Origin: a virus
Length of the DNA stretch: 64,000 nt
Direction: 5' to 3' (one strand)
Virus record (IMG/VR): IMGVR_UViG_3300045988_046889
The notes under the pieces were generated by a model. It did not search any database. It saw only the letters and a list, made by a program, of their open reading frames with translations, and was not told where the DNA came from. Below, piece after piece: positions 1 to 43,771 of the stretch. Made by a program: the position numbers and the translations under genes. How positions within the stretch are numbered: position 1 is the first letter of the stretch; every line of letters begins with the position of its first letter.

Positions 1-129
1 CCAAGTTCCTCTTATTAAAGCTGCCTTAGGTAAATCAACTTTGTCTATATAACATAATAGTCGAGTTCCTTTATAGATAATCTCTAAAGCTACTACATTG
101 TCATCTATTTCTACCACTCTGTTTTTCAT
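1..129 (-). CDS. partial gene (N-terminal 43 codons; C-terminal part lies beyond the window start)
   Basis: ATG at 129..127 on the minus strand, open to the window edge; begins MKNRVVEIDDNVVALEIIYKGTRLLCYIDKVDL; no domain recognised. Confidence 0.3.
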   Translation of the reverse strand, partial: MKNRVVEIDDNVVALEIIYKGTRLLCYIDKVDLPKAALIRGTW

Positions 130-130
130 A

Positions 131-931
131 CTATTTTCTTATTTTACTTAAATCCAAAAATGTAGAAGTATTCCCACCAGTGATTACTGTTGGTACAGTC
201 CCATCCCATTTCTCAATCCACATCTTCTCAAGGATTTCAGGGGTAAGTGCTTGCTGTCTCAACTCATTGGCCTTTTTCTCTGCCTCTGCTGCTACAATAA
301 GCTTCTTGGCTTGTGCCTCTGCTACCTTCACCTCATTCTCCACCTGCATAGCCTGTTGGATAGCTTTATTCTTGGCATTTACTGACTCTACAATGGTCTG
401 AGGATATTTGAGACCTGAAGTGAGTTGTTCTAATTGGAAGTTCTCTTTGGCAAGTGCTTGAGCCAAGTACCTTTCAATAGCATTTTCAATACTGTCCCTT
501 TTACTTACAATATCATCTGTGGTAAACTTGTTTAATTGGATTCTAAAAGCATCCTTTACATAATTATATAGTGTACCACTAATGACTTCACTTAATTCCT
601 TCCTGTATTTCTTGAAGACAGCAGGTGATTTACCATCAATAATCTTCAATGAAACAGTGGGGTCTACAGTGAACTCGGAACCATCCTTTGCATTGATTGT
701 AAAAGGTTCATAATCAATGGTCTGTACATAAGTAGGATACTCATATACTGTAGTGGTCCAAGGATTATACCACACAATGCCAGTTACCAAAGAAGCATCA
801 TCTACCCCCTTGTCATTACCATATAAGTTCACCTTAATGCCCTCACAGCCTGCATCTACCTTCTCCATGCATGATGTTACTGAGAGCATTACAAATAGGG
901 ACAATATCCCTAGAATCAATTTACTTTTCAT
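131..931 (-). CDS. SPFH/band-7 (prohibitin/HflC-like) membrane-anchored protein with signal peptide
   Basis: 266 aa; N-terminal hydrophobic signal ending ...SVTSC (possible lipoprotein); C-terminal half has the Ala/Glu/Lys-rich coiled coil typical of SPFH proteins (AQAKKLIVAAEAEKKANELRQQA). Confidence 0.55.
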   Translation of the reverse strand: MKSKLILGILSLFVMLSVTSCMEKVDAGCEGIKVNLYGNDKGVDDASLVTGIVWYNPWTTTVYEYPTYVQTIDYEPFTINAKDGSEFTVDPTVSLKIIDGKSPAVFKKYRKELSEVISGTLYNYVKDAFRIQLNKFTTDDIVSKRDSIENAIERYLAQALAKENFQLEQLTSGLKYPQTIVESVNAKNKAIQQAMQVENEVKVAEAQAKKLIVAAEAEKKANELRQQALTPEILEKMWIEKWDGTVPTVITGGNTSTFLDLSKIRK

Positions 932-1118
932 CTCTTTTAAATTTAATTGTTGTTAAACATTTTGTTTTAATTGATAAATAGAATATTACTACTATCAAAA
1001 GAAATCCTAATACATTCTCAACAGAATTTGGTATTGACATCATTCCAAGCCCTAATGTGAGCAGGGCAACGAAGATTATAAACCATACAGCAATCTTTGC
1101 TACTATTTCAGCTTTCAT
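921..1118 (-). CDS. small two-TM membrane protein, overlaps the SPFH gene start (possible NfeD-like partner)
   Basis: 65 aa, two hydrophobic helices, 11-nt overlap with the downstream SPFH gene. Confidence 0.4.
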   Translation of the reverse strand: MKAEIVAKIAVWFIIFVALLTLGLGMMSIPNSVENVLGFLLIVVIFYLSIKTKCLTTIKFKRDEK

Positions 1119-1241
1119 ACCACTCCAATTTTCATGTTTTTTTTTGTCAAACTTATATTTACTTAATCAATAGGTTGTAAAAAAAAAGAAAGGTAAGGAT
1201 GTTATCAGTATCCTTACCTTTACTATGAAAATATTCCTTAC

Positions 1242-1676
1242 TTAGTCTCCAAATATCTGATAAGAATATGAAGTACCACCAAGATGCTCTACTGTCCTCT
1301 TCAAGTGAGCCTCAAGCCTTTCTTTTTTATTCATTGCAGACCATTCTCTTGGCTTGAAACATGGAGGACAAGAATCCTTGCTAATCATGTACTCATAAGC
1401 CTCCTTACTCATGTTGATAGTCTGAGTAGCCGGTTTACATTTTCTAGTGTGGAAGGTGATAATCTCAGGATTTTTCCCATTCTTATCAGTTATCCTCGCA
1501 GAGCCTTTGGTCATCTTGTCCAAATCTTCAGTTTGAACATAGATGGTCTTCTTAAATACTTTACCAGATTTGGTTTTTCTCTCAATGACTTTTCGAGTTG
1601 TTTTAAGGCACTCCTCCTTGCTGAGCATTGTACTTCCTTGAAGTTCAATACTTAGACTTAATTTGATTTCACTCAT
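1242..1676 (-). CDS. hypothetical protein
   Basis: 144-aa ORF with ATG start, tightly packed with neighbours. Confidence 0.5.
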   Translation of the reverse strand: MSEIKLSLSIELQGSTMLSKEECLKTTRKVIERKTKSGKVFKKTIYVQTEDLDKMTKGSARITDKNGKNPEIITFHTRKCKPATQTINMSKEAYEYMISKDSCPPCFKPREWSAMNKKERLEAHLKRTVEHLGGTSYSYQIFGD

Positions 1677-1684
1677 TATTTTTC

Positions 1685-2005
1685 TTACCTTAAACCTCCG
1701 AAGGTTTGTGCTACGACTTCAAGGGTAATAGCCTCTCTCATTTTCTCAGAAATTACTTTCTGTAACATTAAAGGAAGTTCTGACATCAAGGCTGCGATTA
1801 TCATGCCCTTAGATTGGGCATCCTTTAATCTGCTAAACTCAATCAGACAGTTATCCAGCACATCCTCTGTACAACTGTCCCCTGTTGCTTTCCCAATCTC
1901 GATGACTCCTTCCCTAAACCTTTGTCTTGTTCTCAATGACATGCTTGTTCCTGGTGCCTTCTCTACTTTCTGTTTCAGGCCCTCTTCTTGTTTTTCTTGT
2001 TCCAT
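1685..2005 (-). CDS. hypothetical protein
   Basis: The ORF track begins at a TTG at 2026; the first in-frame ATG (MEQEKQEEG...) is at 2005. Confidence 0.45.
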   Translation of the reverse strand: MEQEKQEEGLKQKVEKAPGTSMSLRTRQRFREGVIEIGKATGDSCTEDVLDNCLIEFSRLKDAQSKGMIIAALMSELPLMLQKVISEKMREAITLEVVAQTFGGLR

Positions 2006-2032
2006 CACTTTTTTTTTGTAAAACAATATGTG

Positions 2033-2209
2033 TTAAATACCACTACTATTATCATATTTACACTCTATACAGATGTATCCTTCTGGATTGTAAGTACCAC
2101 ACTTAGGGCATTCCCATATATTCCTTACATCCCAGTTTTGAATATACCCTTTGAGTTTTAGTAAATGATTATACTCCTCTACAGGAATAGTTATAGTTTC
2201 CTCTTCCAT
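2033..2209 (-). CDS. small zinc-ribbon protein
   Basis: CPKCG...CIEC four-cysteine motif; the track start is TTG, the ATG is at 2209. Confidence 0.4.
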   Translation of the reverse strand: MEEETITIPVEEYNHLLKLKGYIQNWDVRNIWECPKCGTYNPEGYICIECKYDNSSGI

Positions 2210-2411
2210 TTCCAATGTGTGTCTAATCAATTAAATAAAGAAGACCTATATTCACATACCAGCCTTCTGTAGCAATATTACTATTGCCCAAACTAAAAAC
2301 CAATCTTACTTATGCAAACAAAACTATACCCTTATATGAGTAAGTATCATTATAACTTTCTTTGTACTCCCAACAAGACTTGAACTTGTGTCTTAAAGTT
2401 AAAAGAAATAG

Positions 2412-2485
2412 TGGCTGATGGGGGACTCCAACTCCCAACCTGAGGTTTAGGAAACCTCTGCTCTATGCAGTTGAGCTAATCAGCC
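2412..2485 (-). tRNA. tRNA-Arg(CCT)
   Basis: Reverse complement folds as a cloverleaf: acceptor GGCTGAT/ATCAGCC, anticodon stem GAGGT/ACCTC with loop TTCCTAA; D- and T-loops are atypical (T-loop TTGGAGT). Confidence 0.45.
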
Positions 2486-2752
2486 TTTTGCATTTTCTGT
2501 TAATGAATGACAATTAGGACATAATACTTGAAGATTATCTTCACAGTTATTTTCCGAATTACCATCAATATGATGAATTTGAAGTGGTACTTTATTGGTA
2601 TAAGGATTTACTTCTCCCCATCCACATTTTTCACATTTGTAGTTTACTTTCTCCAGTAAGTAATTTCTTATTGGAGAGCTACAGGTGAATCCATTTGTAC
2701 CATTAATTTCTCCTGATTTCCATGCTTTAATATATTGTTGTTTTTTGTACAT
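2480..2752 (-). CDS. HNH homing endonuclease
   Basis: CEKCGWGE...LQIHHIDGNSENNCEDNLQVLCPNCH = CxxC...HH...N...CxxC HNH motif; the stop codon overlaps the 5' end of tRNA-Arg(CCT). Confidence 0.65.
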   Translation of the reverse strand: MYKKQQYIKAWKSGEINGTNGFTCSSPIRNYLLEKVNYKCEKCGWGEVNPYTNKVPLQIHHIDGNSENNCEDNLQVLCPNCHSLTENAKG

Positions 2753-2841
2753 TGATGCACACTTTCTACTACAATATTTGTTATAGGAAGCTGGATATTT
2801 AATAAAAGATTTACCGCAATATTGACATATTGCAGTATTTG

Positions 2842-3138
2842 CTAACCCCCTATTAAATGTCTCTTTAGGATTAATTTTTCTTCTTCTTGATAATTGTATT
2901 CCAATCCTTGAAGCTGCTTTATAGGAATACCACCTACTGTAATGTCTGTTGTATCCTCACAACAAGGAGATATTGAAACTACCTGCATTGGAGTGCTGTA
3001 CATTGGTGAATCTATTAGGTCATCTATTTTCACCTCGGAATAATCACACAAGAAGGCATATTTCTTTAAATTAGCACCTATAATCTGCCTGGATGTGAGG
3101 TACTCTTTGGTGTAGACTACATAAATTATTCGTGTCAT
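2842..3138 (-). CDS. hypothetical protein
   Basis: 98-aa ORF with ATG start. Confidence 0.45.
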   Translation of the reverse strand: MTRIIYVVYTKEYLTSRQIIGANLKKYAFLCDYSEVKIDDLIDSPMYSTPMQVVSISPCCEDTTDITVGGIPIKQLQGLEYNYQEEEKLILKRHLIGG

Positions 3139-3308
3139 ATTTTATTTACCTAATCTTTTGATTGTAAATACTCCATATTTAAAGGACTTCTTGAGAGCAA
3201 ATTGTAATGCGCTCCCAATAGTCCTTGTACATATGTATTTTCTAACTCTTGAAGGCTTATAGAATGTCACAAGATACTTGTGCTTTCTTTTGAAAATAGA
3301 ATTGATAT

Positions 3309-3524
3309 TCATTTCTTTCTTTTGTATTTGTAGAGCTCTTTCCTAGCTTCTTTGTCATTCCTATAATTAGTTGTAGTGATTTTGCCTGTAATAGATATTA
3401 TACTTATACTGTACTGGAATGCATATTGACCACCAAGTATTATTTCTCTTCCATAGTTGTCTACTATAATTTCTCTAATGAGACAATCACAGTTTTCTTT
3501 GTGATATGTATGCTTTCTTGCCAT
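3309..3524 (-). CDS. hypothetical protein
   Basis: 71-aa ORF with ATG start. Confidence 0.35.
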   Translation of the reverse strand: MARKHTYHKENCDCLIREIIVDNYGREIILGGQYAFQYSISIISITGKITTTNYRNDKEARKELYKYKRKK

Positions 3525-3527
3525 AGC

Positions 3528-3830
3528 TTAATCATCATAAGGTCTGACAAAAGTATATACATATACATCAAGCTCCTCATTATACTCAAACTCATGATAA
3601 GTGTGAAGAGCATTAGCCATTGAAGGCTGCTGATTATTCCTCATCACCCATTCTTCTCTTTCCCAAGAGCCATCATTCATAATAGATTTTATGGCATTGT
3701 GAGCACGAAGATAGTCCTTATCATTGGTCTTGATGTGATACACATGTCTCTGTGTGTAGTCTTTTTGAGACAATTCTGGCTTATACTCTATCTTATAAAG
3801 TATGCCATTATAACATGATATTTTATTCAT
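3528..3830 (-). CDS. hypothetical protein
   Basis: 100-aa ORF with ATG start, 3-nt gap to the upstream gene. Confidence 0.45.
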   Translation of the reverse strand: MNKISCYNGILYKIEYKPELSQKDYTQRHVYHIKTNDKDYLRAHNAIKSIMNDGSWEREEWVMRNNQQPSMANALHTYHEFEYNEELDVYVYTFVRPYDD

Positions 3831-3858
3831 TTGATTGTGAATTACTGTGTAAACTTAT

Positions 3859-3990
3859 TACCAACCGTGGTCTATATATGTTGCCCCATTTATGTAGGCA
3901 TATCTATCATCAAAGGTAAATTCTTTGGTGAATTCTCTGGGATTTTCTTTTGTCTGTGACCCATATTTGTTATTTATTTCTTTACTCATG
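3859..3990 (-). CDS. small hypothetical protein (44 aa)
   Basis: ATG...TAA ORF (MSKEINNKYGSQTKENPREF...) below the 60-aa track threshold. Confidence 0.2.
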
Positions 3991-4295
3991 ACAGATAAAA
4001 TTTGATTGTTTGCTAATTTTTCAAGGATGAATGGTTATTGTACACAGTAAAAACAACTATGTATTACCCCATTTGTTACTTTTCTAATGTGAGGATAATA
4101 GTCTTACTGGAAGGGGTTTGTTTGATAAATTTTACCATCTGATTGTTCCCTTATCTTATTCTATATCACCATGTTAGACCCAATAAGAGTATTACTTATT
4201 GTAAATATTGCTTACTACATAATATGAGGTGTAGCATATCTAAGAAGTTATACTAAGAGGTAACTAATTCCTATTTGTATACTTTCACACAACAA

Positions 4296-4549
4296 ATACT
4301 ATTAATGTCTAAGTGATAAACTTATTAGTGTCTAAGTGATAAACTTATTGATGACTAAATGATAAACTTATTGATATTTAGATAATAAGCTTATTGATAT
4401 TTAGATGATAAACCTATTGATATTTAGATGATAAGCTTATTAGTGTTTAAGTGATAAGCTTATTGATATTTAAGTGATAAACTTATTGATGTTTAAGTGA
4501 CAAGCTTATTAATGTCTAAATGATAAACCTATTAATGTCTAAGTGATAA
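4296..4549. repeat. tandem array of about 11 iterons (22-23 bp) each containing the palindrome ATAAGCTTAT or ATAAACTTAT
   Basis: Units such as ctaagtgataaacttattagtgt / ttagatgataagcttattgatat repeat head-to-tail with no unique spacers. Confidence 0.85.
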
Positions 4550-4604
4550 GATAAGAAATAAGAAAAGGGTAAGCAGGCACTTTTGCCTGCTAACCCTTGA
4601 TACT

Positions 4605-4865
4605 TTAGAAAGTTGCCAATACAGGTGCTCCACCTTGGCCTTCCTCATGAAGAAGCCAGAATTTGTCACCATCAGGAGTAGTAACATTGCTGACCATAGG
4701 ATTATGAGGAATACCTTTGGCTGCTACAGCTCCAGTCTTTGCACCATAGGCAAAGAATAACTTGCCTGTCTTGGGATTCTTTTTAACACTCAGTTTATCT
4801 ACATGCATTACTGCTTTAAACTGCTCAACTGTCAATGTGTCATTGAATACTAAATTTCTTTCCAT
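4605..4865 (-). CDS. hypothetical protein
   Basis: 86-aa ORF with ATG start; last gene of the leftward block. Confidence 0.45.
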   Translation of the reverse strand: MERNLVFNDTLTVEQFKAVMHVDKLSVKKNPKTGKLFFAYGAKTGAVAAKGIPHNPMVSNVTTPDGDKFWLLHEEGQGGAPVLATF

Positions 4866-5056
4866 AATGTAATTTGTTAATTGTTAATAATGTGAATTTT
4901 TAACCTGAGGGGGTAGGACCCCCATGGGCTAAGTGATGGGGGAGGTGAGGTTGGTGTTACCACCCCTCATAGAAATATCACAAAAAAAAAATATTATAAA
5001 AAAAAAAAATTATTCTAAATTATTGTTACATATTTGCATATATCAGATTTTTTACT

Positions 5057-5064
5057 TACCTTTG
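5057..5064 (+). promoter_or_regulatory. Bacteroidota-type -7 promoter element (TAccTTTG)
   Basis: Matches TAnnTTTG, followed by CAG; lies in the divergent intergenic region after a poly-A tract. Confidence 0.3.
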
Positions 5065-5441
5065 CAGTTGTGTTGGAGTAACAAGTACTTCAGGATAGAG
5101 ATTCATCAACTCTTAAAAGCATAGATGACCCTTTATAATCAGGAGTTTATTTGGGCACAGCAGCTTAGGAAAGCAAAGGATACTAAGAAGGCTACAGGCA
5201 AGTGCCCCACTTGAAGAGGATTACAAATAAGTATTTAGCCGAGCTTTAGGCCAAGTCTTCAAGGGTGGTGTAAAAGACTACAGAGATAACACAGAGTGAG
5301 AACTAATAATATATAAACGGGGTAAAAGACTGATTATAAGGATGCAAGCCATAATGCTGGCAGGGTCTCTTTATATTTTAAGAAAAGATTTGATAATTCT
5401 AGATTCTGTTGGAATAAGGATAAATAGGTTATATAGATAAG

Positions 5442-5843
5442 ATGATTAAGATAAAAGAAAGTATTAAGTGGTTGTGGCAGCTACCACAAAACATGTTGGC
5501 TTTGTGCATTGAAGGTGTACTATGTAGTACAGCATACAGGGAGGGTGAAGCAGATGGCAATACCATTATAGTGAATAGTGTATTACCTTCAGCTATGTCT
5601 TTGGGAGATTATCTCTTTGTAAACCCTATGTCTTCAGAAAGGACAATTAAGCATGAGTGTGGACACAGTAAGCAATCAGATATATTGGGTCCTTTATATT
5701 TGATAGTAATTGGAGCACCCTCATTACTACATAATATAATACATTCTATATGTAGTAGAGCAGGGTTTAAGTGGGATTACTACAGCTTCTATACTGAGAA
5801 GTGGGCTGACAGATTAGTAGGTATAGACAGGAGTATCTCTTAG
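5442..5843 (+). CDS. small HExxH-motif protein (putative zinc metallopeptidase-like)
   Basis: 133 aa; the motif HECGH sits in the middle of the protein; ATG start. Confidence 0.4.
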   Translation: MIKIKESIKWLWQLPQNMLALCIEGVLCSTAYREGEADGNTIIVNSVLPSAMSLGDYLFVNPMSSERTIKHECGHSKQSDILGPLYLIVIGAPSLLHNIIHSICSRAGFKWDYYSFYTEKWADRLVGIDRSIS

Positions 5844-5939
5844 GTAGATACCTAACCAGCTTATTTTCTCACCTTCTAGTGGAAAATTGCTATAATAAAA
5901 AAAGAGCTGGTAATATTTGGATGTGTGAAAAATAATACT

Positions 5940-5947
5940 TATCTTTG
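5940..5947 (+). promoter_or_regulatory. Bacteroidota-type -7 promoter element (TAtcTTTG) upstream of the tRNA array
   Basis: tatctttgcag about 115 nt upstream of the first tRNA. Confidence 0.4.
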
Positions 5948-6063
5948 CAGTGTCAAAGATAAGAAGATAAGAAATGTGTTTTAGGATTAAAGAAGTACTA
6001 CCTTTTTTTTCTTGATAATCTGTTCATACTTGCGTATTTCTAACATAAAGGTAGTACTTCTTT

Positions 6064-7596: not shown

Positions 7597-7666
7597 TGCT
7601 CCTATAGCTGAATTGGTTAAAGCAACAGTCTCTTAAACTGTGGGTTCAAGTCCCAGTGGGAACACT
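7597..7666 (+). tRNA. degenerate tRNA-like element (anticodon-arm-like ACAGT-CTCTTAA-ACTGT would read CTT/Lys; no valid acceptor stem or variable loop)
   Basis: 5' half resembles a tRNA (GCTCCTATAGCTGAATTGGTTAAAGCA); the T-arm-like hairpin ACTGtGGG-TTCAAGT-CCCAGT abuts the anticodon arm; the 3' end cannot pair with the 5' end. Confidence 0.3.
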
Positions 7667-8224: not shown

Positions 8225-8280
8225 CTAAAAATAATTTGAAAATAATTAAGTAAATGCTTGGTTATATCATAAGTTTTACT

Positions 8281-8288
8281 TAACTTTG
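8281..8288 (+). promoter_or_regulatory. Bacteroidota-type -7 promoter element (TAacTTTG)
   Basis: taactttgca 21 nt upstream of the ATG at 8309. Confidence 0.4.
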
Positions 8289-9460: not shown

Positions 9461-9770
9461 TTTAATAGAGAGAGCATTGATGAGTGAGGAGGAGTTCAAG
9501 AAGTATCTGGGAAACAAGGCAGATATAGTAGAGGACCCACTTACAGAAACTCTTAATTTAAGAGATTATAGAGCTGTTGGTAAGTTTAAATCAATTAGGA
9601 GAGCCATAAGAAGAGGGTTAGTATCTCCTTCAGGCACTATATGTCCTAAGAGACCTTTCAATAACAGAGCTAATACTAACAGAAGGAAAGGGCACCACAG
9701 CAGAGTAATGAATGAAGTAAAGAAGTCAATATATGGACAACTCAAACACAGAAGGGCAGAATACCTATAA
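9444..9770 (+). CDS. hypothetical protein (basic C-terminus)
   Basis: 108-aa ORF with ATG start. Confidence 0.4.
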   Translation: MEEKLNLIERALMSEEEFKKYLGNKADIVEDPLTETLNLRDYRAVGKFKSIRRAIRRGLVSPSGTICPKRPFNNRANTNRRKGHHSRVMNEVKKSIYGQLKHRRAEYL

Positions 9771-9951
9771 TGAGGAACCTGTTCTATATTGCAAGCATTG
9801 TTTATCCTTGAAGGTGAGATTTGTACCTAGGATGAAGGATTCGGATTATTGTGATGAGTGTGGCTCTACTGATATTGGGGAGTGCTCAATAGAAGAGTGG
9901 GAGACTAATTACAGGAACAGGTACGGACATAAATATTTGGAAAACTATTAA
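9733..9951 (+). CDS. small zinc-ribbon protein
   Basis: CKHC...CDEC motif; 72 aa. Confidence 0.35.
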   Translation: MDNSNTEGQNTYNEEPVLYCKHCLSLKVRFVPRMKDSDYCDECGSTDIGECSIEEWETNYRNRYGHKYLENY

Positions 9952-9963
9952 ATATAAAATAAT

Positions 9964-10251
9964 ATGGGAGAAAAGGAAGAACTTAGGCATGAACAGCCAT
10001 CTAAGATGAGTTATGAACAGTTGGAGAATGTGGCTCATCAATTGAGTGAACAAGTTAAGCAGTTGTACATGAGCCTTCAGAAATCTAATCTGGAGAATAC
10101 ATTCCAAAGACTTAACTATTTATTTAAGGTGGTAGAAAATGGCCACGCATTTAAGCCGGATTTCTTGAATAAGTGTACAGAGGAAATTGAAAATATGATG
10201 GCAATTCCTGAGGAGGAACAAGAGAAAGCAACTGACAAAGCTGGAGAGTAA
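9964..10251 (+). CDS. hypothetical acidic protein
   Basis: 95-aa ORF with ATG start. Confidence 0.45.
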   Translation: MGEKEELRHEQPSKMSYEQLENVAHQLSEQVKQLYMSLQKSNLENTFQRLNYLFKVVENGHAFKPDFLNKCTEEIENMMAIPEEEQEKATDKAGE

Positions 10252-10712
10252 TGCCATATAAAGACGCTCTCAAAAATAAGGAGTATAAAAGGCAATGGCA
10301 CATAAGAAATAGAGATAGATTACTTGAAAGAGCAAAGATTTCATATCATAATAATCCTGCTCCAAAGATAGCGCAATCAAGGAAATATAGGGAAAATAAC
10401 CCCTCAAAAGCTAAAGAATACTATAAAGATAATAGATTAAAGAATATAGGACTAGTCTTAAGCAGAAGAGATAAAAATAAAGAGGAGGCTATTCTTTCTA
10501 AAGGTGGAAGATGTGAGATATGTGGATTCAAATATAATGGCAAAAATGCTGTTTGTTTCGATTTTCATCATATTAACCCAAATGAGAAGAGATGTAATCC
10601 TTCTACTGCTCTGAGACTTTCAAAAGAGAGGAGGGATGAGGAACTTTCAAAGTGTCTATTAGTGTGTGCAAATTGTCATAGATTAATACATAATAGCAGG
10701 CATGATAAGTGA
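10251..10712 (+). CDS. HNH endonuclease
   Basis: CEICGF...FDFHHINPNEKR...CANCH = HNH motif; basic N-terminus. Confidence 0.6.
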   Translation: MPYKDALKNKEYKRQWHIRNRDRLLERAKISYHNNPAPKIAQSRKYRENNPSKAKEYYKDNRLKNIGLVLSRRDKNKEEAILSKGGRCEICGFKYNGKNAVCFDFHHINPNEKRCNPSTALRLSKERRDEELSKCLLVCANCHRLIHNSRHDK

Positions 10713-11088
10713 GAGACCTAATAACATAATAAGGATACCAACTTCACTATCAGTGAATTTCTTCAAGTTGTGGCTCATGTTCCTAGAACCTTTTCATAAG
10801 TTAACCAAAAGAGAGATAGATGTTGCTGCATCTTTTGTGAAGCAAAGATATGAACTCAGTAAAGTTATCAAGGACAGTGAAATACTTGATAGGGTTACAA
10901 TGAGTGAGGATACAAAGAAGAAGGTGAGGGAAGAGTGTAATATTACTCTTCCACACTTTCAAGTAATTTTGGGTAAATTAAGGAAGAACAAAGTCATAGT
11001 AGATGGCAAGATAAATCCCAAATTCATTCCTAATATCAATGCAGATAATGATGCCTTTCAGTTGTTATTACTCTTCGAGTTAAAATGA
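10702..11088 (+). CDS. hypothetical protein
   Basis: 128-aa ORF with ATG start, overlaps the upstream gene by 11 nt. Confidence 0.45.
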   Translation: MISERPNNIIRIPTSLSVNFFKLWLMFLEPFHKLTKREIDVAASFVKQRYELSKVIKDSEILDRVTMSEDTKKKVREECNITLPHFQVILGKLRKNKVIVDGKINPKFIPNINADNDAFQLLLLFELK

Positions 11089-11357
11089 TATATTCTGATA
11101 TAATTGGTAAGGTTTCCAGTGAGTTGAACCTACCTGTTAAGCTAGTGGATAGAACATACAGGGCATTTTGGTTATTCATTAACCAGTCCATACAATCCTT
11201 GCCATTAAAGGAAGATATTGATGAGGAGGATTTTGCTAAGTTGAAAACAAACTTTAATATTCCTTCATTAGGTAAGTTGACTTGTACCTATGATAGAATG
11301 TTGGGAGTTAAGAAAAGGTTTAAGATTATAAAACAGTTAAGGGAGAAGAAATGCTAA
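11085..11357 (+). CDS. hypothetical protein
   Basis: 90-aa ORF with ATGA overlap to the upstream gene. Confidence 0.45.
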   Translation: MIYSDIIGKVSSELNLPVKLVDRTYRAFWLFINQSIQSLPLKEDIDEEDFAKLKTNFNIPSLGKLTCTYDRMLGVKKRFKIIKQLREKKC

Positions 11358-11776: not shown

Positions 11777-11781
11777 TACAA

Positions 11782-11821
11782 AAGAGTATCAGGAATATTA
11801 TTCTGATACTCTTTTTTTTTT
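11782..11821 (+). terminator. rho-independent terminator
   Basis: AGAGTATCAG...CTGATACTCT stem followed by T11. Confidence 0.7.
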
Positions 11822-14985: not shown

Positions 14986-15064
14986 CCTTGTCAGTAAATT
15001 TAGTAAAACGGGAATGGACACTTAATAAATTATTTATATACTTGCATGGGATTATATTTTTATT

Positions 15065-15072
15065 TAACTTTG
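15065..15072 (+). promoter_or_regulatory. Bacteroidota-type -7 promoter element (TAacTTTG)
   Basis: ttaactttgcaaag about 22 nt upstream of the ATG at 15095. Confidence 0.4.
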
Positions 15073-15094: not shown

Positions 15095-15772
15095 ATGGAA
15101 GAGAAGTACATAGTATACCTACATATAAATAAGACAAATAATAAAGTCTATGTAGGAATAACCCGTTTCACGAAGAATCCTAATAGGAGATGGAGAAATG
15201 GCATAGGATACAAAGAGACTTCTTTGATATATAAGGCTGCTCTGAAATATGGATGGGGCACTTTCAGTCATGTAATACTTTGCAAGACTACAAAAGAAAG
15301 GGCATGTCTATTAGAGCAGTCTCTTATAAAGCTCTACAAGAGTAGAGGACTAAGCTATAATATAGGGTTGGGGGGAGAGGGTGCTGAATCCTTTCCAGAT
15401 GAAACTAAGGAGAAACTTAAACAGTATGCTCCTTGGATTAAGGGTAAACATCATACTGAAAAAGCTAAGAAGAAAATAAGTGAAGCAGGAAGAAGACCTT
15501 GTTCTGAAGAGACTAAAAAGAAAATCAGTAGAGCTAATAAAGGTCATAACAATGGCATGTATGGTAAGCATGTTTCTGACTATGTGAAGAAATTAATATC
15601 TGATAAATTTAGCAAGCCTGTACTTCAATTGGATTTGAATAATAACATTATTGATAGATTTTCCTCTGCTTCAGAGGCAGAAAGGTACTTAAATGGTAGA
15701 GGCAGTCATATAGGCTGTTGCTGTCTTGGCAAGAGGAAAACTGCTTATGGATATAAATGGAAATATGAGTAA
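15095..15772 (+). CDS. GIY-YIG homing endonuclease (free-standing, between terL and portal)
   Basis: KYIVYLHINKTNNKVYVGIT...R...YN = GIY-(10)-YVG motif plus a basic NUMOD-like repeated C-terminus; the track start (15086) is TTG, ATG at 15095. Confidence 0.6.
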   Translation: MEEKYIVYLHINKTNNKVYVGITRFTKNPNRRWRNGIGYKETSLIYKAALKYGWGTFSHVILCKTTKERACLLEQSLIKLYKSRGLSYNIGLGGEGAESFPDETKEKLKQYAPWIKGKHHTEKAKKKISEAGRRPCSEETKKKISRANKGHNNGMYGKHVSDYVKKLISDKFSKPVLQLDLNNNIIDRFSSASEAERYLNGRGSHIGCCCLGKRKTAYGYKWKYE

Positions 15773-22468: not shown

Positions 22469-23280
22469 CACAAATAGAGGCAGTAAAGAAGGTAGGAGGT
22501 TCCCTACCTTCTGCTACAAAACAATTTTGTACAGCCTCTTGGCTTGCAGGCCATTCTAGTATATTTGATACCAACTCCCTACAAGGGTATGAAGCAAAAG
22601 ACTTTGTGAGTGAAATGCATATAAAGCCTGCTATAGTAACAACTAAATATGAAATAATAATTCCTGAGGTGAGGGTTTCTTTTGGATTTGAAAGTGGCAC
22701 TCCTCGAGGATTTACACGTCTTAGTGACTCTGACCAGTTATCACAGACTAAGGCAGTCTTATGTGCAGTACCTGTTGATGGTGGTCAGATTTCTTCAAGT
22801 GTATATACTCCTACTAATGGTGGTAGAGATGACAATTATGGTGCACAGTATATGCTATTCTCAGGCATGAAAATATATGTTGTTGCAGGCACTTCACTAG
22901 CTAAGTTATACATAGTATTGTATAATGACCAAAGTACCATGGTTCAGTATAATAATAAGAGCATTACCAATCTTATGTCAGGTAACAACATATATAAGCT
23001 GGTTAATGCTACTATGAGAAATAGTTCCGCTTACAGTAACCTGTTTAATGGTGCAAATTACACAAAGACACAAGCAGTAGGTGATTCTAATGGTAATGCT
23101 ACTAATTCTGTGTGGTGTGCTATGCTTCCATTGGCAGATGATGGAAGATCTAATGGGAGTTATTCAGTAGGTTCAAACATGGATGCACCTCCCACTAATG
23201 TCAATTATAACCAGCAATTATACAACTTCAAGGGTTCTATAATTTACAACAAATTAAATTCATTTACTCCAACTACATAG
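22450..23280 (+). CDS. tail fibre-like or receptor-binding protein
   Basis: 276 aa, Asn/Ser/Thr-rich, overlaps the upstream fibre gene by 19 nt. Confidence 0.35.
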   Translation: MGREFMTQIEAVKKVGGSLPSATKQFCTASWLAGHSSIFDTNSLQGYEAKDFVSEMHIKPAIVTTKYEIIIPEVRVSFGFESGTPRGFTRLSDSDQLSQTKAVLCAVPVDGGQISSSVYTPTNGGRDDNYGAQYMLFSGMKIYVVAGTSLAKLYIVLYNDQSTMVQYNNKSITNLMSGNNIYKLVNATMRNSSAYSNLFNGANYTKTQAVGDSNGNATNSVWCAMLPLADDGRSNGSYSVGSNMDAPPTNVNYNQQLYNFKGSIIYNKLNSFTPTT

Positions 23281-23282
23281 CT

Positions 23283-23897
23283 ATGAGAAAGATATTAGTA
23301 AGTATTATATCAGTGATTATGCTGGCTTCCATATCCTGTTCCATATATTACTGCAATAGGTATAAGAAAATATCTAATGAGTTGGCTATTGCAGTGAATA
23401 ACAATAAAGCATACTCCTTGGAGAACAGTTCCCTGAAGAAGGAAAATAGAGTGTATAAGCTAACTGCTGAGCAGCTTGAGTATTACAGTGATTCCATTAC
23501 TGTTGAAATGGACAGGATTAGAAAGGAGTTGAAGATAAAGGATAAGGATTTGCAATACTTACAATATCTGTTATCTACATCAGAAAGGATAGATACTGTT
23601 ACTTTCCAAGATACCATATTCAGTGAAACAACATTTCATGTTGATACTCTGATTGGGGATAAATGGTATCAGTTGAAGCTGGGAATGAAATTCCCTAATG
23701 TCATTACAGTGCATCCTAAATTTGTAAGTGAGAAATACATAGTTACACATAGCAAGAAAGAGACTGTAAATCCTCCTAAGAAATTTTTTCTGTTTAGATG
23801 GTTTCAGAAGAAACATAGAGTGGTGGAAGTTACTATTGTGGAAAATAGTCCCTATGTGAATAATAAGCAGCAAAAATTTATTGAAATAATTAAATGA
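23283..23897 (+). CDS. membrane-anchored protein (N-terminal TM), lysis-cassette candidate
   Basis: 204 aa, N-terminal hydrophobic helix SIISVIMLASISCSIYY. Confidence 0.35.
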   Translation: MRKILVSIISVIMLASISCSIYYCNRYKKISNELAIAVNNNKAYSLENSSLKKENRVYKLTAEQLEYYSDSITVEMDRIRKELKIKDKDLQYLQYLLSTSERIDTVTFQDTIFSETTFHVDTLIGDKWYQLKLGMKFPNVITVHPKFVSEKYIVTHSKKETVNPPKKFFLFRWFQKKHRVVEVTIVENSPYVNNKQQKFIEIIK

Positions 23898-23898
23898 C

Positions 23899-24279
23899 AT
23901 GATTGACCTAGGTATATTAATTACTGGAGGAGTAGGGATAATAACCACAGTAATCAGTGGTTGGACTTCTTGGTTCTTTGCAAGAAGAAAGTATAATAGT
24001 GAGGTAGATAATAACCTCATAGAGAACATGCAGCAGTCTTTGGAGTTTTATAAGAAGTTGTCTGACGATAACAAGAACAGGCTTGACGAGGTTCTTAAAA
24101 GAAATGCAGAGCTGGAACAGGAGATAAGGGATTTAAGGAAGCAGATGTTCAGTCTAATGAACTCCATCTGTACTGACCTTACTTGTCAGTTGAGGAAAAG
24201 AAACTTGAATTTATTTAATGAGCAAAATGGAACTGATAGTAGACAGGAAATGGAAGAAACAGAGTTACACGATAAGTAA
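23899..24279 (+). CDS. N-terminal TM + coiled-coil protein (holin or i-spanin-like candidate)
   Basis: 126 aa; TM helix GILITGGVGIITTVISGWTSWFFA followed by a charged coiled coil. Confidence 0.35.
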   Translation: MIDLGILITGGVGIITTVISGWTSWFFARRKYNSEVDNNLIENMQQSLEFYKKLSDDNKNRLDEVLKRNAELEQEIRDLRKQMFSLMNSICTDLTCQLRKRNLNLFNEQNGTDSRQEMEETELHDK

Positions 24280-24691
24280 CCTCCTTGTAGATGGGAAGTG
24301 GTTCTGTAATGTACTTGAAGATACTGATAGAGGATTAGATGACAGCATGAGTGTCGCTAAAATCAAATCCTTAAAGGAACCAGGCATTACAGCAATCCCT
24401 AGTGGAACTTATGATGTAACTTTAGATGTGTATAGCCCTGGGTTTGGGCCTAAATCTTTCTATAAAGGAACATGCAATGGCAAATTACCCAGACTTCTTA
24501 ATGTAAAGGGGTTTGATGGTATCCTTATACATGCAGGTAATACAGATAAGGATACTTCAGGATGTCTCTTGGTAGGTGTAAACTCTGAAGTTGGTAAGGT
24601 TCTGAATAGTCAGGATACATTCAGGAGGCTATATAAGCTACTTCAAGAGGGCAAGAATAGAGGTGAGAAAATAACCATAAAAATTCTATGA
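24218..24691 (+). CDS. putative cell-wall hydrolase (YkuD/L,D-transpeptidase-like H...SxGC motif), endolysin candidate
   Basis: ILIHAGNTDKDTSGCLLVG resembles the His...Ser-x-Gly-Cys catalytic motif; the 5' end overlaps 23899..24279 in another frame, so the true start may be an internal Met. Confidence 0.3.
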   Translation: MSKMELIVDRKWKKQSYTISNLLVDGKWFCNVLEDTDRGLDDSMSVAKIKSLKEPGITAIPSGTYDVTLDVYSPGFGPKSFYKGTCNGKLPRLLNVKGFDGILIHAGNTDKDTSGCLLVGVNSEVGKVLNSQDTFRRLYKLLQEGKNRGEKITIKIL

Positions 24692-24742
24692 TATGGCAAA
24701 GAAGTGTGGTTGCAAAGGAAAAGGTAAGAACAATAGAGGTAA

Positions 24743-25003
24743 ATGATTATGGATGCAAGAATAGTTTCAAATCAAGTTATAAATAGCCTTCAAATATCTG
24801 TACTGAAGGAAGTGCCTTCAGGGAACTTCAATCCTGGAGTCAACTTCCTACTGAAGAATATATCTGATGATGATGTGGAGGTTACTATAATTCCAGCAGG
24901 ACAAAAGGATAGCATAAAGACTATTCTAGGTGTTGGATGGAATCCAGAGATATGTAAAGGTGTTATAAATGCTCCTTCAGGAGTTCTTCAATATGGATAT
25001 TAA
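24743..25003 (+). CDS. hypothetical protein
   Basis: 86-aa ORF with ATG start, 4 nt before the next gene. Confidence 0.4.
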   Translation: MIMDARIVSNQVINSLQISVLKEVPSGNFNPGVNFLLKNISDDDVEVTIIPAGQKDSIKTILGVGWNPEICKGVINAPSGVLQYGY

Positions 25004-25006
25004 GAT

Positions 25007-27920: not shown

Positions 27921-27949
27921 AGGAGGTAATTATTACCTCCTTTTTTTTT
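27921..27949 (+). terminator. rho-independent terminator
   Basis: GGAGGTAAT/ATTACCTCC stem followed by T9. Confidence 0.7.
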
Positions 27950-28076
27950 GTACATATGTTACTAAGTTAAAGCCCAAGGTATAATCTTGCCCTTTCTTTT
28001 TGCATATATAATAAGTATCTTATTTGTGCTTGCAAAGTAATTTATTTACTATATTGTATGGGTGTAAAATTCTATA

Positions 28077-28084
28077 TAACTTTG
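28077..28084 (+). promoter_or_regulatory. Bacteroidota-type -7 promoter element (TAacTTTG)
   Basis: taactttgcattg about 30 nt upstream of the ATG at 28115. Confidence 0.45.
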
Positions 28085-28114
28085 CATTGTTTAATTATAT
28101 CATAATGGGAGATT

Positions 28115-29296: not shown

Positions 29297-29327
29297 ACAA
29301 TTATGCCGAGGATAAAAAGGTTGATAC

Positions 29328-29353
29328 AATGGGTAGGAGACCCTAATCTCCTA
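29328..29353 (+). other. perfect 10-bp stem hairpin (GGGTAGGAGA-cccTAa-TCTCCTACCC) without a T tract
   Basis: Seen directly in the sequence after the scaffold-like gene; possible RNA processing, attenuation or regulatory stem-loop. Confidence 0.4.
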
Positions 29354-29378
29354 CCCAACAGAGAAAAAAACAAACATA

Positions 29379-30128: not shown

Positions 30129-30161
30129 AGATTATAATTTTAACTAATAAACAATTATTTT

Positions 30162-31538: not shown

Positions 31539-31665
31539 GCCTTTGCACATTTCTCAGTTCCCATAGCCTGACCTAGAAACAGAAGAGAGGCTAAAAATAA
31601 AACAAGGTTAATTGCTGGAAGTTCCTTAGAGCTTTCACTGCTTTTTAAACTTCAAACATTTAAAT

Positions 31666-32253: not shown

Positions 32254-32583
32254 GTAATGCTGAAATGCCTTGCTCATCTAAATAGATGATGAAGATATAG
32301 TCCGAACTTTAGTGAAAGCTAAAGATATTACATGGGCACGATGTAATAGTAACATAAAAATGTGAGAAATCCATTTACAGGACAGATAGGTAATCCTTAC
32401 ATGTCATTTGATGAGGATGCTGCTGTAATACACAGAATGGCTACTCTTGGTATCTGTGTTCTTGACCCAACAAGAACTATGTCATTGATTCCTGCTATTT
32501 TGCAAGGATAAACTATAAAGGGGAGTAGGGGTAACTCCTGCTTCCCTTAATTTATTTTTATTTCTATTAAATAAGGAGAAGAT

Positions 32584-33615: not shown

Positions 33616-33631
33616 AGAAGAATATAAGATT

Positions 33632-35181: not shown

Positions 35182-35210
35182 ACTATTGTGTAATTTAATA
35201 TTAAATTAAA

Positions 35211-36266: not shown

Positions 36267-36281
36267 AGCGAGATATAAATA

Positions 36282-36308
36282 AGGAGACTTTTATAGTCTC
36301 CTTTTTTT
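36282..36308 (+). terminator. rho-independent terminator
   Basis: AGGAGACT-tttA-TAGTCTCCT followed by T7. Confidence 0.7.
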
Positions 36309-37227: not shown

Positions 37228-37270
37228 GTTATATATTTGCTTACTGCAAAAGATTCAATTAAAACTATTG

Positions 37271-37308
37271 CAATATTGATTATAAATATCTATATTTGCA
37301 ATAGTTTT
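37271..37308. promoter_or_regulatory. 10-bp inverted repeat CTATTGCAAa ... tTTGCAATAG in an AT-rich intergenic leader
   Basis: Perfect inverted repeat with about 18-nt spacing, followed by a T-rich tract, upstream of the ATG at 37339. Confidence 0.3.
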
Positions 37309-43678: not shown

Positions 43679-43771
43679 CTCAATAGAGATAGCCTAAAGG
43701 GAAGGTAAGTAATAAACTTATCTTCCCTTTACTTTTTAAATAATATTCTTGTATAATTCTGATACTTTACT

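Follow-up and report, generated by a model that had tools for sequence, protein, structure and literature searches.

Eight probable host-type promoters sharing a composite TTG-N20-TAnnTTTG motif in an uncultured crAss-like phage

The window analysed here is the whole 64,000-nt stretch of IMG/VR virus record IMGVR_UViG_3300045988_046889 and represents a crAss-like phage with approximately 98% identity to the uncultured phage cr85_1 (Steigviridae, Kahnovirus). A preliminary description of this DNA reported six copies of the octamer TAnnTTTG, all of which are present at the positions given and are followed by CA: TACCTTTG at 5057, TATCTTTG at 5940 and 43772, and TAACTTTG at 8281, 15065 and 28077. 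The list was incomplete, as it missed two further sites at 37291(+) and 56718(−). The site originally flagged, P5940 (5917..5949, + strand), consists of TTG at 5917–5919 and the box TATCTTTG at 5940–5947 followed by CA, with a predicted transcription start site (TSS) at approximately 5952. It precedes the tRNA array, in which tRNA-Gln starts at 6074, 126 nt further on. In between is a 17-bp hairpin, and its U-rich tail means that transcription might halt ahead of the tRNAs. Orthologous tRNA-array promoters are found at 1596 in cr85_1, 1649 in crAss001 and 2500 in DAC17. Homology with cr85_1 resumes at 5916, by the −33 box; the upstream sequence is non-homologous, and the spacing between TTG and the box is still 20. 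The palindrome TATCTTTG-N6-CAAAGATA at this site is not kept in cr85_1 and was treated as chance.

The first site, P5057 (5034..5066, +; TTG 5034–5036, box TACCTTTG 5057–5064, CA 5065–5066, predicted TSS at approximately 5069), lies in the divergent region separating the leftward and rightward gene blocks. It is followed by approximately 373 nt without a credible ORF and then by a 133-aa gp4-like (HExxH) ORF at 5442–5843, which shows 47% identity to crAss001 gp4 (E = 1e-39). The orthologous sites are at 115 in cr85_1, 651 in crAss001 and 1928 in DAC17. The 373-nt leader was considered as a non-coding RNA and rejected: it has no Rfam match, its structure is weak (z = −1.98), and sequence conservation with crAss001 ends with the promoter. 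A conserved small ORF in this leader was looked for and not found. Downstream of the tRNA array promoter, P8281 (8258..8290, +; TTG 8258–8260, box TAACTTTG 8281–8288) precedes a DpsA-like gene with its ATG at 8309, giving a predicted 5′ UTR of approximately 16 nt, and has orthologues at 4523 in crAss001 (gp7 DpsA) and 5167 in DAC17. P15065 (15042..15074, +; TTG 15042–15044, box TAACTTTG 15065–15072) precedes a GIY-YIG/NUMOD homing endonuclease gene (ATG 15095), after which comes the portal gene at 15747; the crAss001 orthologue (11610) is immediately ahead of the portal gene, and that of DAC17 (12476) is ahead of a 762-nt ORF and the portal gene.

Four sites lie in the remainder of the window. 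P28077 (28054..28086, +; TTG 28054–28056, box TAACTTTG 28077–28084) is located upstream of a gp31-like gene (ATG 28115) and then the major capsid gene; its boxes are kept and its spacer has diverged in L018 (58% protein identity) and in crAss001 (27063), and the DAC17 orthologue is at 26177. P37291 (37268..37300, +; TTG 37268–37270, box TATATTTG 37291–37298), one of the two sites missed earlier, precedes the tail ring protein 2 gene (ATG 37339), the product of which matches PF25702 CrAss_Ring_2 over its full length (E = 3e-61). The strict motif occurs at this position in 72 of 80 IMG/VR relatives, and orthologues are found at 35107 in crAss001 (gp40) and 32761 in DAC17. P43772 (43749..43781, +; TTG 43749–43751, box TATCTTTG 43772–43779) precedes the cargo protein 1 gene (ATG 43798; PF25725 crAss_CARG1), and the genes behind it, including those for the 582-aa and 2521-aa proteins associated with the virion RNA polymerase, extend to 55891; the crAss001 orthologue at 41960 (gp45) has a spacing of 19. 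The other site missed earlier, P56718 on the − strand (56709..56741; TTG 56741–56739, box TATCTTTG 56718–56711), precedes an HNH/NUMOD4 homing endonuclease gene (ATG 56687), and an identical site is present in cr85_1 at 52867(−). The claim that a gene start or the tRNA array comes within about 20–30 nt after each site holds for 8281, 15065, 28077 and 43772, where 18–30 nt separate the box end from the ATG, but not for 5057 (377 nt to the ORF at 5442) or 5940 (126 nt to tRNA-Gln). The predicted leaders, which lack a Shine-Dalgarno sequence, are 14–36 nt long at six of the eight sites and 373 and 122 nt at the other two.

The bare octamer is not over-represented in the whole window (72 matches on both strands vs 66.9 ± 6.9 in shuffles); the enrichment that the preliminary description took as decisive is seen upstream of genes, where 9 matches lie 15–70 nt from co-oriented CDS starts vs 1.9 expected (binomial P = 1.3e-4). 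Intergenic matches in sense orientation number 12 vs 3.1 expected in the window. The non-random object is the composite TTG-N20-TAnnTTTG, with 8 matches at a spacing of exactly 20 and 0–3 at any of the other spacings between 15 and 25; Markov simulations give 1.30 expected matches for this form and 0.08 for TTG-N20-TAnnTTTGCA, which is also observed 8 times. A permissive gene model leaves 8.3% of the window uncovered, and seven of the composite sites fall there; the eighth is covered solely by a dubious 62-aa ORF. All eight are outside credible genes and co-oriented with the local genes. Their geometry places TTG at −35 to −33 and the −7 box at −12 to −5, with CA after the box in 8/8, and every box fits the refined form TAHHTTTG, with G missing from −10 and −9. 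The anticipated TTTG partner at −33 was found in reduced form: TTG is exactly 20 nt from the box at all eight sites, but the full TTTG occurs in just two, and the others read CTTG or ATTG.

Several candidates for additional members were set aside. A ninth TAnnTTTGCA at 6997 lies inside tRNA-Ala without a TTG partner and is regarded as chance, and the bare −7 boxes upstream of genes at 27531, 1155(−), 3555(−), 2326(−), 37232 and 8308 were not counted, having no TTG at 19–21 nt. A weight matrix of 57 positions derived from the eight sites was overfitted, scoring the training sites at 39–54 bits and all others at 8 or less, and a mismatch scan of the window found no convincing degenerate copies. 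A scan of the window for E. coli-type sigma-70 consensus sequences likewise gave no enrichment (76 vs 73, 79 vs 75 and 69 vs 65).

The same spacing peak is present in phages with known hosts. At a spacing of 20, crAss001 (host Bacteroides intestinalis) has 19 matches vs 0–5 at other spacings, and DAC17 (host B. thetaiotaomicron) has 8 vs 0–2. Orthologous sites exist in crAss001 for 7/8 window promoters and in DAC17 for 6/6 junctions within the 35.7 kb examined, and the motif stands ahead of the same genes in both phages, namely those for the tRNA array, DpsA, portal, gp31, ring protein 2 and cargo protein 1. This conservation spans genera with 55–70% protein identity. Among 31 promoters of four genera, positions that were not used for selection are also conserved (−31 A in 26/31, −26 T in 28/31, −4 C/T in 31/31 and −3 A in 29/31), and in the upstream A/T block A is enriched at −54, −53, −50, −49 and −41 with no sharp motif.

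In the cultured relative phi14:2, such promoters have been mapped. Drobysheva, Sokolova et al. described “extended tripartite” middle/late promoters for phi14:2 and candidate genus VI of the betacrassvirinae (now Steigviridae), analysing 14 genomes and 126 promoters, and mapped the middle promoters P070, P075, P108 and P110 by primer extension (bioRxiv 10.1101/2020.03.07.982082). TTG-N20-TAnnTTTG is present in 4/4 of these mapped promoters. The preprint also reports that rifampicin blocks middle and late transcription and that a bacterial holoenzyme starts in vitro at the same 5′ ends (bioRxiv 10.1101/2020.03.07.982082). The phi14:2 promoters and those of the window share the core and the kinds of downstream genes (tRNAs, portal, an IHF-containing unit and virion RNA-polymerase proteins), and may share an A-rich upstream block; they differ after the box, where phi14:2 has TTTGT(A) and the Bacteroides phages have TTTGCA. 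An explanation by functionless chance matches of an A/T-rich word would suit the chance frequency of the bare 8-mer in the window and the A/T-richness of intergenic DNA, yet it is refuted by the single sharp spacing peak, the 8 composite matches vs 0.08 expected and the identity with the mapped phi14:2 promoters, and the strict co-orientation with genes and the conservation of orthologous sites across genera speak against it as well, leaving it a negligible probability.

The geometry of these sites is that of the Bacteroidota primary sigma factor. The −33/−7 consensus TTTG/TAnnTTTG was established on B. fragilis genes and then borne out across the genomes of B. thetaiotaomicron, Flavobacterium johnsoniae and F. 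psychrophilum, with the −7 box at −12 to −5, the start 4–5 nt downstream and G avoided at −10/−9 (TAHHTTTG); B. thetaiotaomicron leaders have a mode of 23 nt and a median of 32 nt (PMC7366714, PMC6847099, PMC9723704). The phage sites have the same −7 box at the same position, the G of the upstream element at −33 and short leaders without Shine-Dalgarno sequences, the predicted 14–36 nt agreeing with the B. thetaiotaomicron mode and median. They differ from the host promoters in being invariant in TTG alone rather than TTTG, in the fixed 20-nt distance and in the CA present in 8/8. The −33 element is weak or undetectable in host genomes (PMC7366714, PMC6847099, PMC9723704) and fixed in the phage, and the phage promoters therefore look near-consensus and are probably strong.

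On the observed motif with its statistics, its position and orientation, its orthologous conservation and its identity with the mapped promoters of a relative, we consider it highly probable (about 0.88) that the TAnnTTTG sites are a real motif marking eight promoters for the host RNA polymerase with the Bacteroidota primary sigma factor (sigma-A, sigma-ABfr). The earlier assignment to Bacteroides sigma-A-type promoters is accordingly upheld by the −33/−7 architecture, the phi14:2 promoters and the orthologous positions. Each promoter would comprise an A/T-rich stretch at approximately −55 to −40, a −33 element with TTG at −35 to −33 (most often TTGCAT) and, always 20 nt further on, a −7 element extended to TA(H)(C)TTTGCA (−12 to −3), and transcription would start 4–5 nt past the G of the −7 box, approximately 12 nt past its first T. 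The promoters would drive the tRNA array, the genes for virion structure, packaging and lysis, and those for two homing endonucleases. The start sites and the dependence on the host polymerase are predicted by analogy with phi14:2.

A different enzyme could in principle read the motif, as the phage encodes and packages its own multisubunit RNA polymerase (giant proteins at 48326–55891 and 56801–63970), and the crAss001 authors raised the possibility of a role in late infection for two of its subunits. In phi14:2, however, the transcripts of the virion polymerase are rifampicin-resistant and share no common upstream motif, and the genes behind the motif are rifampicin-sensitive and their motif is read by the bacterial holoenzyme (bioRxiv 10.1101/2020.03.07.982082). 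The motif is moreover the consensus of the host phylum, and a promoter of the phage polymerase is thus very improbable. With E. coli sigma-70 promoters, the host-type promoters proposed here share TTG at −35 to −33, a 17-bp gap to TAnnTT at −12 to −7 and the conserved T−12, A−11 and T−7; they differ in the −10 hexamer, where TA(H)(C)TT with an added TG(CA) takes the place of TATAAT. The geometry shared with the sigma-70 −35/−10 elements explains why the E. coli holoenzyme reads the phi14:2 promoters.

The promoter class is already described for gut crAss-like phages (Steigviridae), and in this respect the reading is correct and ordinary. A literature search for crAss-phage promoters under the TAnnTTTG name found nothing relevant; the phi14:2 study by Drobysheva, Sokolova et al. 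reportedly appeared in Nature in 2021. To our knowledge, all Crassvirales with known hosts infect Bacteroidota, so that the step from the motif to a Bacteroidota host, although sound, adds nothing to what taxonomy already implies. The strict composite motif is absent from the one Suoliviridae crAss-like phage and the one Flavobacterium phage scanned; it is, to judge from these genomes, a Steigviridae trait, and its absence is therefore no argument against a Bacteroidota host. Shine-Dalgarno cores are found upstream of 12/61 gene starts in the window, equal to the 18% background and without enrichment, and this lack of Shine-Dalgarno usage, likewise typical of Bacteroidota, supports such a host.

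Together with intrinsic-terminator-like hairpins, which lie just upstream of three promoters and at unit ends, the promoters would divide the rightward half of the genome into transcription units. The preliminary description had spoken of at least five, which proves too narrow, since eight promoters are predicted and the units would reach terminators far past the first gene. P5057 would serve the leader and the gp4-like ORF, P5940 the tRNA array, and P8281 the DpsA-like gene, tRNAs, regulators and terminase. The P15065 unit would contain the GIY-YIG endonuclease, portal, tail and lysis genes and end at the terminator-like hairpin with a T-run at 27921..27941 (+), which closes the unit upstream of P28077. 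P28077 would drive the gp31-like gene and the capsid genes; the strong hairpin at 32518..32548 (+; 14 pairs, 7 GC), after the capsid gene, is probably a partial terminator inside this unit. Another terminator-like hairpin with a T-run (36281..36303, +) follows the gene at 35211–36266 and has no promoter of the TTG-N20-TAnnTTTG class behind it. The P37291 unit would extend from ring protein 2 through a 1453-aa protein to the hairpin at 43695..43731 (+; 16 pairs and a T-rich tail), 18 nt upstream of the P43772 −33 box, and the P43772 unit from cargo protein 1 through the 2521-aa protein to the hairpin at 55914..55940 (+), which follows the gene of that protein. P56718(−) would drive the HNH endonuclease; upstream of it, after the 1351-aa gene, is a terminator-like hairpin at 56773..56798 (−; 11 pairs, T-run) that scores on both strands. 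The timing and extent of each unit are predictions. In the leftward replication block of cr85_1, very few composite sites are found in most of its length, and many genes must therefore be served by long operons or another promoter class.

P37291 itself is enclosed by a hairpin (37261..37308, +) formed by the arms AAAACTATTGCAA at 37261–37273 and TTGCAATAGTTTT at 37296–37308 and containing a short inner stem; TTATTTATT comes next. Its folding energy is −15.7 kcal/mol (z = −3.56), and UUAUUUAUU stands directly after it. The stem is A/T-rich and interrupted rather than G+C-rich with a short loop, and the terminator scan did not call it. In relatives, the hairpin has −16 to −30 kcal/mol with 3–8 T right after the stem in most versions, and several have tight 6–10 nt loops and G+C-rich cores. 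Compensatory changes maintain the hairpin across 31 distinct orthologous versions, with 20 different arm sequences preserving pairing. Many of its pairs are G-U, and the sense RNA is more stable than the antisense RNA in 29/31 versions; these features are evidence that the structure is under selection. Covariation was assessed from folds of the individual sequences and from pair counts that took the partner of G−33 as anchor. This anchor is fitted to the structure, and the count includes only pairs outside it, compared with slid and column-shuffled controls. RNAalifold predicted no structure on the MAFFT alignment of the 31 ring-2 promoters, in which the 3′ arm is displaced by 0–4 nt relative to the −7 box.

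In this sense-strand hairpin the −33 box falls within the 5′ arm, and the 3′ arm holds the −7 box together with the predicted +1, so that a new transcript would begin inside the 3′ arm and be unable to form the hairpin. From these sequence features, the hairpin is probably a terminator overlapping the promoter, and we infer an intrinsic-terminator-like RNA hairpin acting on read-through from upstream genes. P37291 might then be a dual-use element whose approximately 48 nt end or process the capsid-operon transcripts and start a new transcript, a proposal to which we give slightly less than even odds. At portal and lysis promoters of crAss001 and DAC17, related hairpins have the −33 box at their centre, and promoter hairpins may be a general Steigviridae way of packing unit boundaries. 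Compact promoter/stem-loop cassettes exist in other phages, among them the PeSL (promoter-early stem-loop) modules of the T4 type and the N4 virion polymerase's hairpin promoters, the latter small (5–7 bp) and read on DNA by the phage polymerase. P37291 resembles them in joining a promoter to a conserved stem-loop at a gene-module boundary and differs in that the stem encloses the promoter itself and G-U pairs favour the sense RNA. No description of a promoter within a hairpin at the ring-2 gene, or of crAss terminator/hairpin elements, was found in the literature covered, which was incomplete and did not take in the phi14:2 figures. If a terminator does overlap P37291, adjacent late units would be insulated in less than 50 nt, and the hairpin would offer a way to test why genes with one promoter motif differ in timing, which is so far unexplained.

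Inverted repeats and timing also bear on whether these are a phage-specific subclass of host-polymerase promoters, needing or timed by a phage-encoded factor that reads extra positions. These could be TTGCATA..T behind the −33 box, the CA that follows the −7 box, the A/T block further upstream, or the inverted repeats near −35. As candidates for the factor, the phage encodes zinc-finger or VpsT-like regulators and HU/IHF-like proteins at 9733–11357 and 38017–38571. Such a factor would fit the conservation of the unselected positions over four genera, the spacing of 20 in 8/8 sites and the inverted repeats with arms of at least 9 nt in 7/31 promoters vs 3% of shuffles. It would also fit the use of one motif before “middle” genes in phi14:2 and “late” genes in crAss001, which means that the motif alone fails to explain timing. 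Against it, the inverted-repeat arms covary with no single sequence kept, making a sequence-specific dimeric protein site unlikely, and 7/8 window promoters are without a significant fold. In phi14:2, moreover, the E. coli sigma-70 holoenzyme alone reads the promoters from the correct start in vitro (bioRxiv 10.1101/2020.03.07.982082). We therefore regard a required or timing phage factor as unlikely, and less so than a phage-polymerase promoter, and retain recognition by the host sigma-A holoenzyme as the preferred reading. As a separate observation, the phage motif, with its fixed spacing, CA extension and conserved spacer positions, is much stricter than the reported host promoters, so that an additional specificity factor encoded by the phage is conceivable.

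The value of the promoter finding is practical more than conceptual. A precise map of promoters and terminators is gained for an uncultured Kahnovirus, and it would, by analogy with phi14:2, be confirmed that in this phage late and structural genes depend on the host Bacteroidota-type polymerase. The near-consensus phage promoters could be strong, compact parts for Bacteroides genetics. The comparison also corrects the public annotation of cr85_1, in which ring protein 2 is truncated.

All six TAnnTTTG(CA) sites listed in the preliminary description as -7 promoter elements are present in the window, and in each of them a TTG precedes the box at a distance of exactly 20 nt. Bare TAnnTTTG occurs at chance frequency (72 matches vs 66.9 +/- 6.9), and the form with CA occurs 9 times vs 4.4. 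What counts is position, not number: 9 co-oriented matches lie 15-70 nt upstream of a CDS start vs 1.9 expected (P=1.3e-4), and 12 are intergenic and sense vs 3.1 expected. Because of this enrichment upstream of starts and in intergenic sense positions, the motif withstands the objection, raised with the original claim, that it might not exceed background there. A spacing scan of TTG-Nx-TAnnTTTG (x=15-25) found 8 matches at x=20 and 0-3 at each other spacing; first-order Markov simulations gave 1.30 expected for TTG-N20-TAnnTTTG, and 0.08 once the CA that follows the box in all eight is required. The promoters are named by the starts of their -7 boxes, seven of them on the plus strand (5057, 5940, 8281, 15065, 28077, 37291, 43772) and one on the minus strand (56718); 37291 and 56718(-) had been overlooked. 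A permissive gene model leaves 8.3% of the window uncovered, and seven of the eight sites fall there; the only ORF overlapping the eighth, 62 aa long and spanning the promoter, lacks credibility. All eight share the orientation of the local genes. A mismatch-tolerant scan of the window yielded no more convincing members, and a ninth TAnnTTTGCA, at 6997, was rejected as it lies within tRNA-Ala with no TTG partner. Recast as a composite motif, the observation is real, chance matches being excluded by these statistics and by conservation.

Aligned on the box, the sites share an A/T-rich segment followed by TTG (usually extended to TTGCAT or TTGTAT), 20 nt and TA(H)(C)TTTGCA. The Bacteroidota -7 element occupies -12 to -5, with transcription starting 4-5 nt downstream, and disfavours G at -10 and -9, the refined form being TAHHTTTG (PMC6847099, PMC9723704), which 8/8 window sites obey. 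Start sites were predicted at box start + 12. Since 20 nt separate it from the box, the TTG would fall at -35 to -33, the position to which the name "-33 TTTG" refers (PMC7366714). All sites have the TTG of this partner; the full TTTG is found only at 5057 and 5940, the others having CTTG or ATTG. The skeleton can also be read as sigma-70-like (TTGnnn, 17 nt, TAnnTT); a scan with the E. coli consensus showed no enrichment anywhere in the window.

By its sequence, the window is assigned to a crAss-like phage. Across bases 28000-36000, it is 98% identical to uncultured phage cr85_1 (MT774390; Crassvirales, Steigviridae, Asinivirinae, Kahnovirus oralis) and ~75% identical to the Bacteroides phages crAss001, DAC17 and PhiCrAssBcn, and it is collinear with cr85_1 throughout, apart from several insertions and deletions. 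A leftward gene block (1-4865) is followed by a long rightward block (4900-55900), which carries the genes for packaging, structure and lysis together with an array of 21-22 tRNAs, and by a second leftward block from 56100 with giant virion RNA-polymerase genes. The array may be one tRNA larger than the 20 plus-strand tRNAs of ARAGORN, because an extra tRNA at 7598-7664 was called by Rfam (40.6 bits) with no ARAGORN counterpart.

The same eight sites are found in cr85_1, which has two more: one precedes a tail gene that the window lacks, the other the catalytic RNA-polymerase gene. At P5940, the window upstream of 5916 is non-homologous to cr85_1, yet the cr85_1 TTG also lies 20 nt from the box. 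P15065 is conserved, and its GIY-YIG gene is mostly unalignable to the cr85_1 endonuclease DNA (15163-15748). In crAss001, spacing 20 again forms a peak (19 vs 0-5 at other spacings), with sites before the tRNA array (1649), DpsA (4523), portal (11610), gp31 (27063), gp40 ring protein 2 (35107), gp45 cargo protein (41960, spacing 19) and gp50 (64762, minus strand); DAC17 shows 8 vs 0-2 at the same gene junctions (35.7 kb covered). Comparison of the gp31 promoter in the window, in crAss001 and in a relative with 58% identity shows a varying spacer between conserved boxes. In 31 promoters of four genera, positions outside the selection are also conserved, both in the spacer (-31 A 26/31, -30 T 25/31, -26 T 28/31) and downstream of the box (-4 C or T 31/31, -3 A 29/31). 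No spacing peak was detected in the Suoliviridae crAss-like phage cr60_1 or in Flavobacterium phage Fpv1. There are hints of a different transcription strategy in the more distant cr60_1, whose annotation lists an "RNA polymerase sigma-W factor" gene of the phage itself as well as a tmRNA (3573-4148 and 5587-6033).

Investigations on phi14:2 (Steigviridae, host Cellulophaga baltica) mapped middle promoters by primer extension before g070, g075, g108 and g110, and revealed that middle and late transcription, not early, is blocked by rifampicin and that E. coli holoenzyme generates the same 5' ends in vitro; 126 similar sites were reported in 14 crAss-like genomes of its group, in many cases ahead of genes for tRNAs, the portal, IHF or RNA polymerase (bioRxiv 10.1101/2020.03.07.982082). 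The phi14:2 sequence contains TTG-N20-TAnnTTTG at 4/4 mapped promoters. RNA-seq of crAss001 resolved three temporal modules (early, middle and late), the latter two being assumed by the authors to be transcribed by the host polymerase (PMC8375218). Because of these shared promoters and the crAss001 literature, the window motif belongs to a promoter class known from earlier work on this phage family. In view of the phi14:2 results, use of these promoters by the phage's own polymerase is unlikely. Action of a phage co-factor on host-type promoters, which would suit a motif that is stricter than host promoters and precedes different temporal gene classes in different phages, is rather improbable. 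The reading as Bacteroidota-type promoters is supported by the composite motif, its conservation and the mapped phi14:2 promoters. The -7 box is specific to the Bacteroidota primary sigma factor (PMC7366714, PMC9723704). Shine-Dalgarno 4-mer cores are not enriched (12/61 gene starts vs 18% in random sequence), and the 20 nt before the 61 CDS start codons are A-rich (40-56% A). The Bacteroidota host originally proposed agrees with the box, the absent Shine-Dalgarno signal, the A-rich upstream region and taxonomy; this inference is correct but adds nothing beyond taxonomy, and the genus is not derivable from it.

Regarding the targets, P8281 precedes a DpsA-like gene (ATG 8309, 20 nt from the box end); P15065 a GIY-YIG/NUMOD homing endonuclease (ATG 15095, 22 nt), then the portal gene (15747); P28077 a gp31-like gene (ATG 28115, 30 nt), then the capsid gene; P37291 the tail ring protein 2 gene (ATG 37339, 40 nt; PF25702, full length, E=3e-61); P43772 cargo protein 1 (ATG 43798, 18 nt; PF25725 plus a lysozyme domain), then 582-aa and 2521-aa proteins; and P56718(-) an HNH/NUMOD4 homing endonuclease (ATG 56687, 23 nt). 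Predicted leaders of these six promoters with a near gene are 14-36 nt, in line with those measured in B. thetaiotaomicron (23-nt mode, 32-nt median; PMC7366714). The distance of 20-30 nt to a gene start or the tRNA array, as first described, fails for P5057, where ~373 nt without a credible ORF precede a gp4-like ORF at 5442 (47% identity to crAss001 gp4), and for P5940, which lies 126 nt from tRNA-Gln with a 17-bp hairpin and U-rich tail between. This perfect 17-bp inverted repeat (5989-6063; AAAGAAGTACTACCTTT ... AAAGGTAGTACTTCTTT, ~41-nt loop; fold z=-2.7) is followed by TTCTTTATTTTG, with the first tRNA at 6074; crAss001 lacks it, and its tRNA begins 26 nt after the box. The repeat could be an attenuator, terminator or processing site.

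The promoters mark boundaries of transcription units, as had been proposed, because terminator-like hairpins with their T-runs closely precede P28077 (27921-27941), P43772 (43695-43731) and P56718(-) (56798-56773), and others are located after the 2521-aa gene (55914-55940), after the capsid gene (32518-32548), and at 36281-36303 and 11780-11815. The units are longer than listed: that of the 8309 gene most likely extends via four tRNAs, regulators and terminase to 14985, and the GIY-YIG unit is predicted to extend via portal, tail and lysis genes to ~27914.

Of slightly more interest than the promoter class itself is the promoter-in-a-hairpin at P37291, which is bracketed by a 13-bp inverted repeat (arms 37261-37273 and 37296-37308, then TTATTTATT). 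RNA of 37261-37308 has a folding energy of -15.7 kcal/mol (z=-3.56); for the remaining seven promoters of the window, folding is not significant (z +0.8 to -1.7). A ring-2 protein alignment provided 80 related loci from IMG/VR, 72 of which have the strict promoter motif before the ring-2 gene, in 35 distinct versions (84-nt window). After omission of near-duplicates, 31 versions were folded, and 31/31 form a hairpin whose 5' arm contains the -33 box and whose 3' arm contains the -7 box and +1 (all z < -3.6, mean -6.4). Sense RNA is stabler than antisense in 29/31 (mean -23.6 vs -16.8 kcal/mol) because of many G-U pairs. Six positions 5' of TTG (-36 to -41) are 94.6% paired vs 70.0 +/- 2.0% in column shuffles, and a slid-partner control on a wider position set gave 42-55%. 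The arms vary (20 distinct sequences, up to five pair types per position) with compensatory changes. Selection thus acts on the structure of a nucleic acid, in the simplest case an RNA hairpin in read-through transcripts from upstream genes. An RNase III processing site or a DNA-level element is possible. As an A-tract, stem and U-tract are present, the hairpin is probably an intrinsic terminator overlapping the next promoter. Termination there is a step we infer; transcripts from P37291 would start within the 3' arm and be unable to form the hairpin. In crAss001 and DAC17, portal and lysis promoters also have hairpins centred near -35. The cr85_1 counterpart (33832-34170) of the ring-2 gene (37339-38013) is annotated as a 113-aa protein; as the 224-aa window ORF starting at ATG 37339 covers the entire CrAss_Ring_2 profile, the deposited gene is 5'-truncated.

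Mosaic differences from cr85_1 occur at junctions 27975 and 1130 and at 2352-2962, 5428-5916 and 15162-15749; two breakpoints are at or just upstream of promoters, namely 5916 (-33 box of P5940) and 27975 (~80 nt before P28077). Four cr85_1 genes (record 23090-25563) and ~2.3 kb (record 91504-93807) are missing from the window, which also has non-homologous segments. In the divergent region upstream of P5057, 4900-4968 is a hairpin-forming sequence (gagggggtaggaccccc; gatgggggaggtgaggttggtgttaccacccctcat), its G+C-richness unusual vs the genome's 37% G+C; it may be near a genome terminus, because the cr85_1 record ends and begins there with a 101-bp overlap. Relative to cr85_1, a 598-nt insertion (29385-29981) separates the gp31-like and capsid genes; neither Pfam nor PHROG gave a match for the ORF overlapping it (29565-30128, 187 aa). 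At 31528-32365, an 838-nt insertion absent from cr85_1 interrupts the major capsid gene, with exon 1 ending at 31527 (...YQWGL) and exon 2 at 32366-32511; the insertion contains an ORF for an HNH/NUMOD4 endonuclease (31666-32253) and, at 32096-32324, a match to group I introns that stays below threshold (RF00028, 38.9 bits, E=3e-8).
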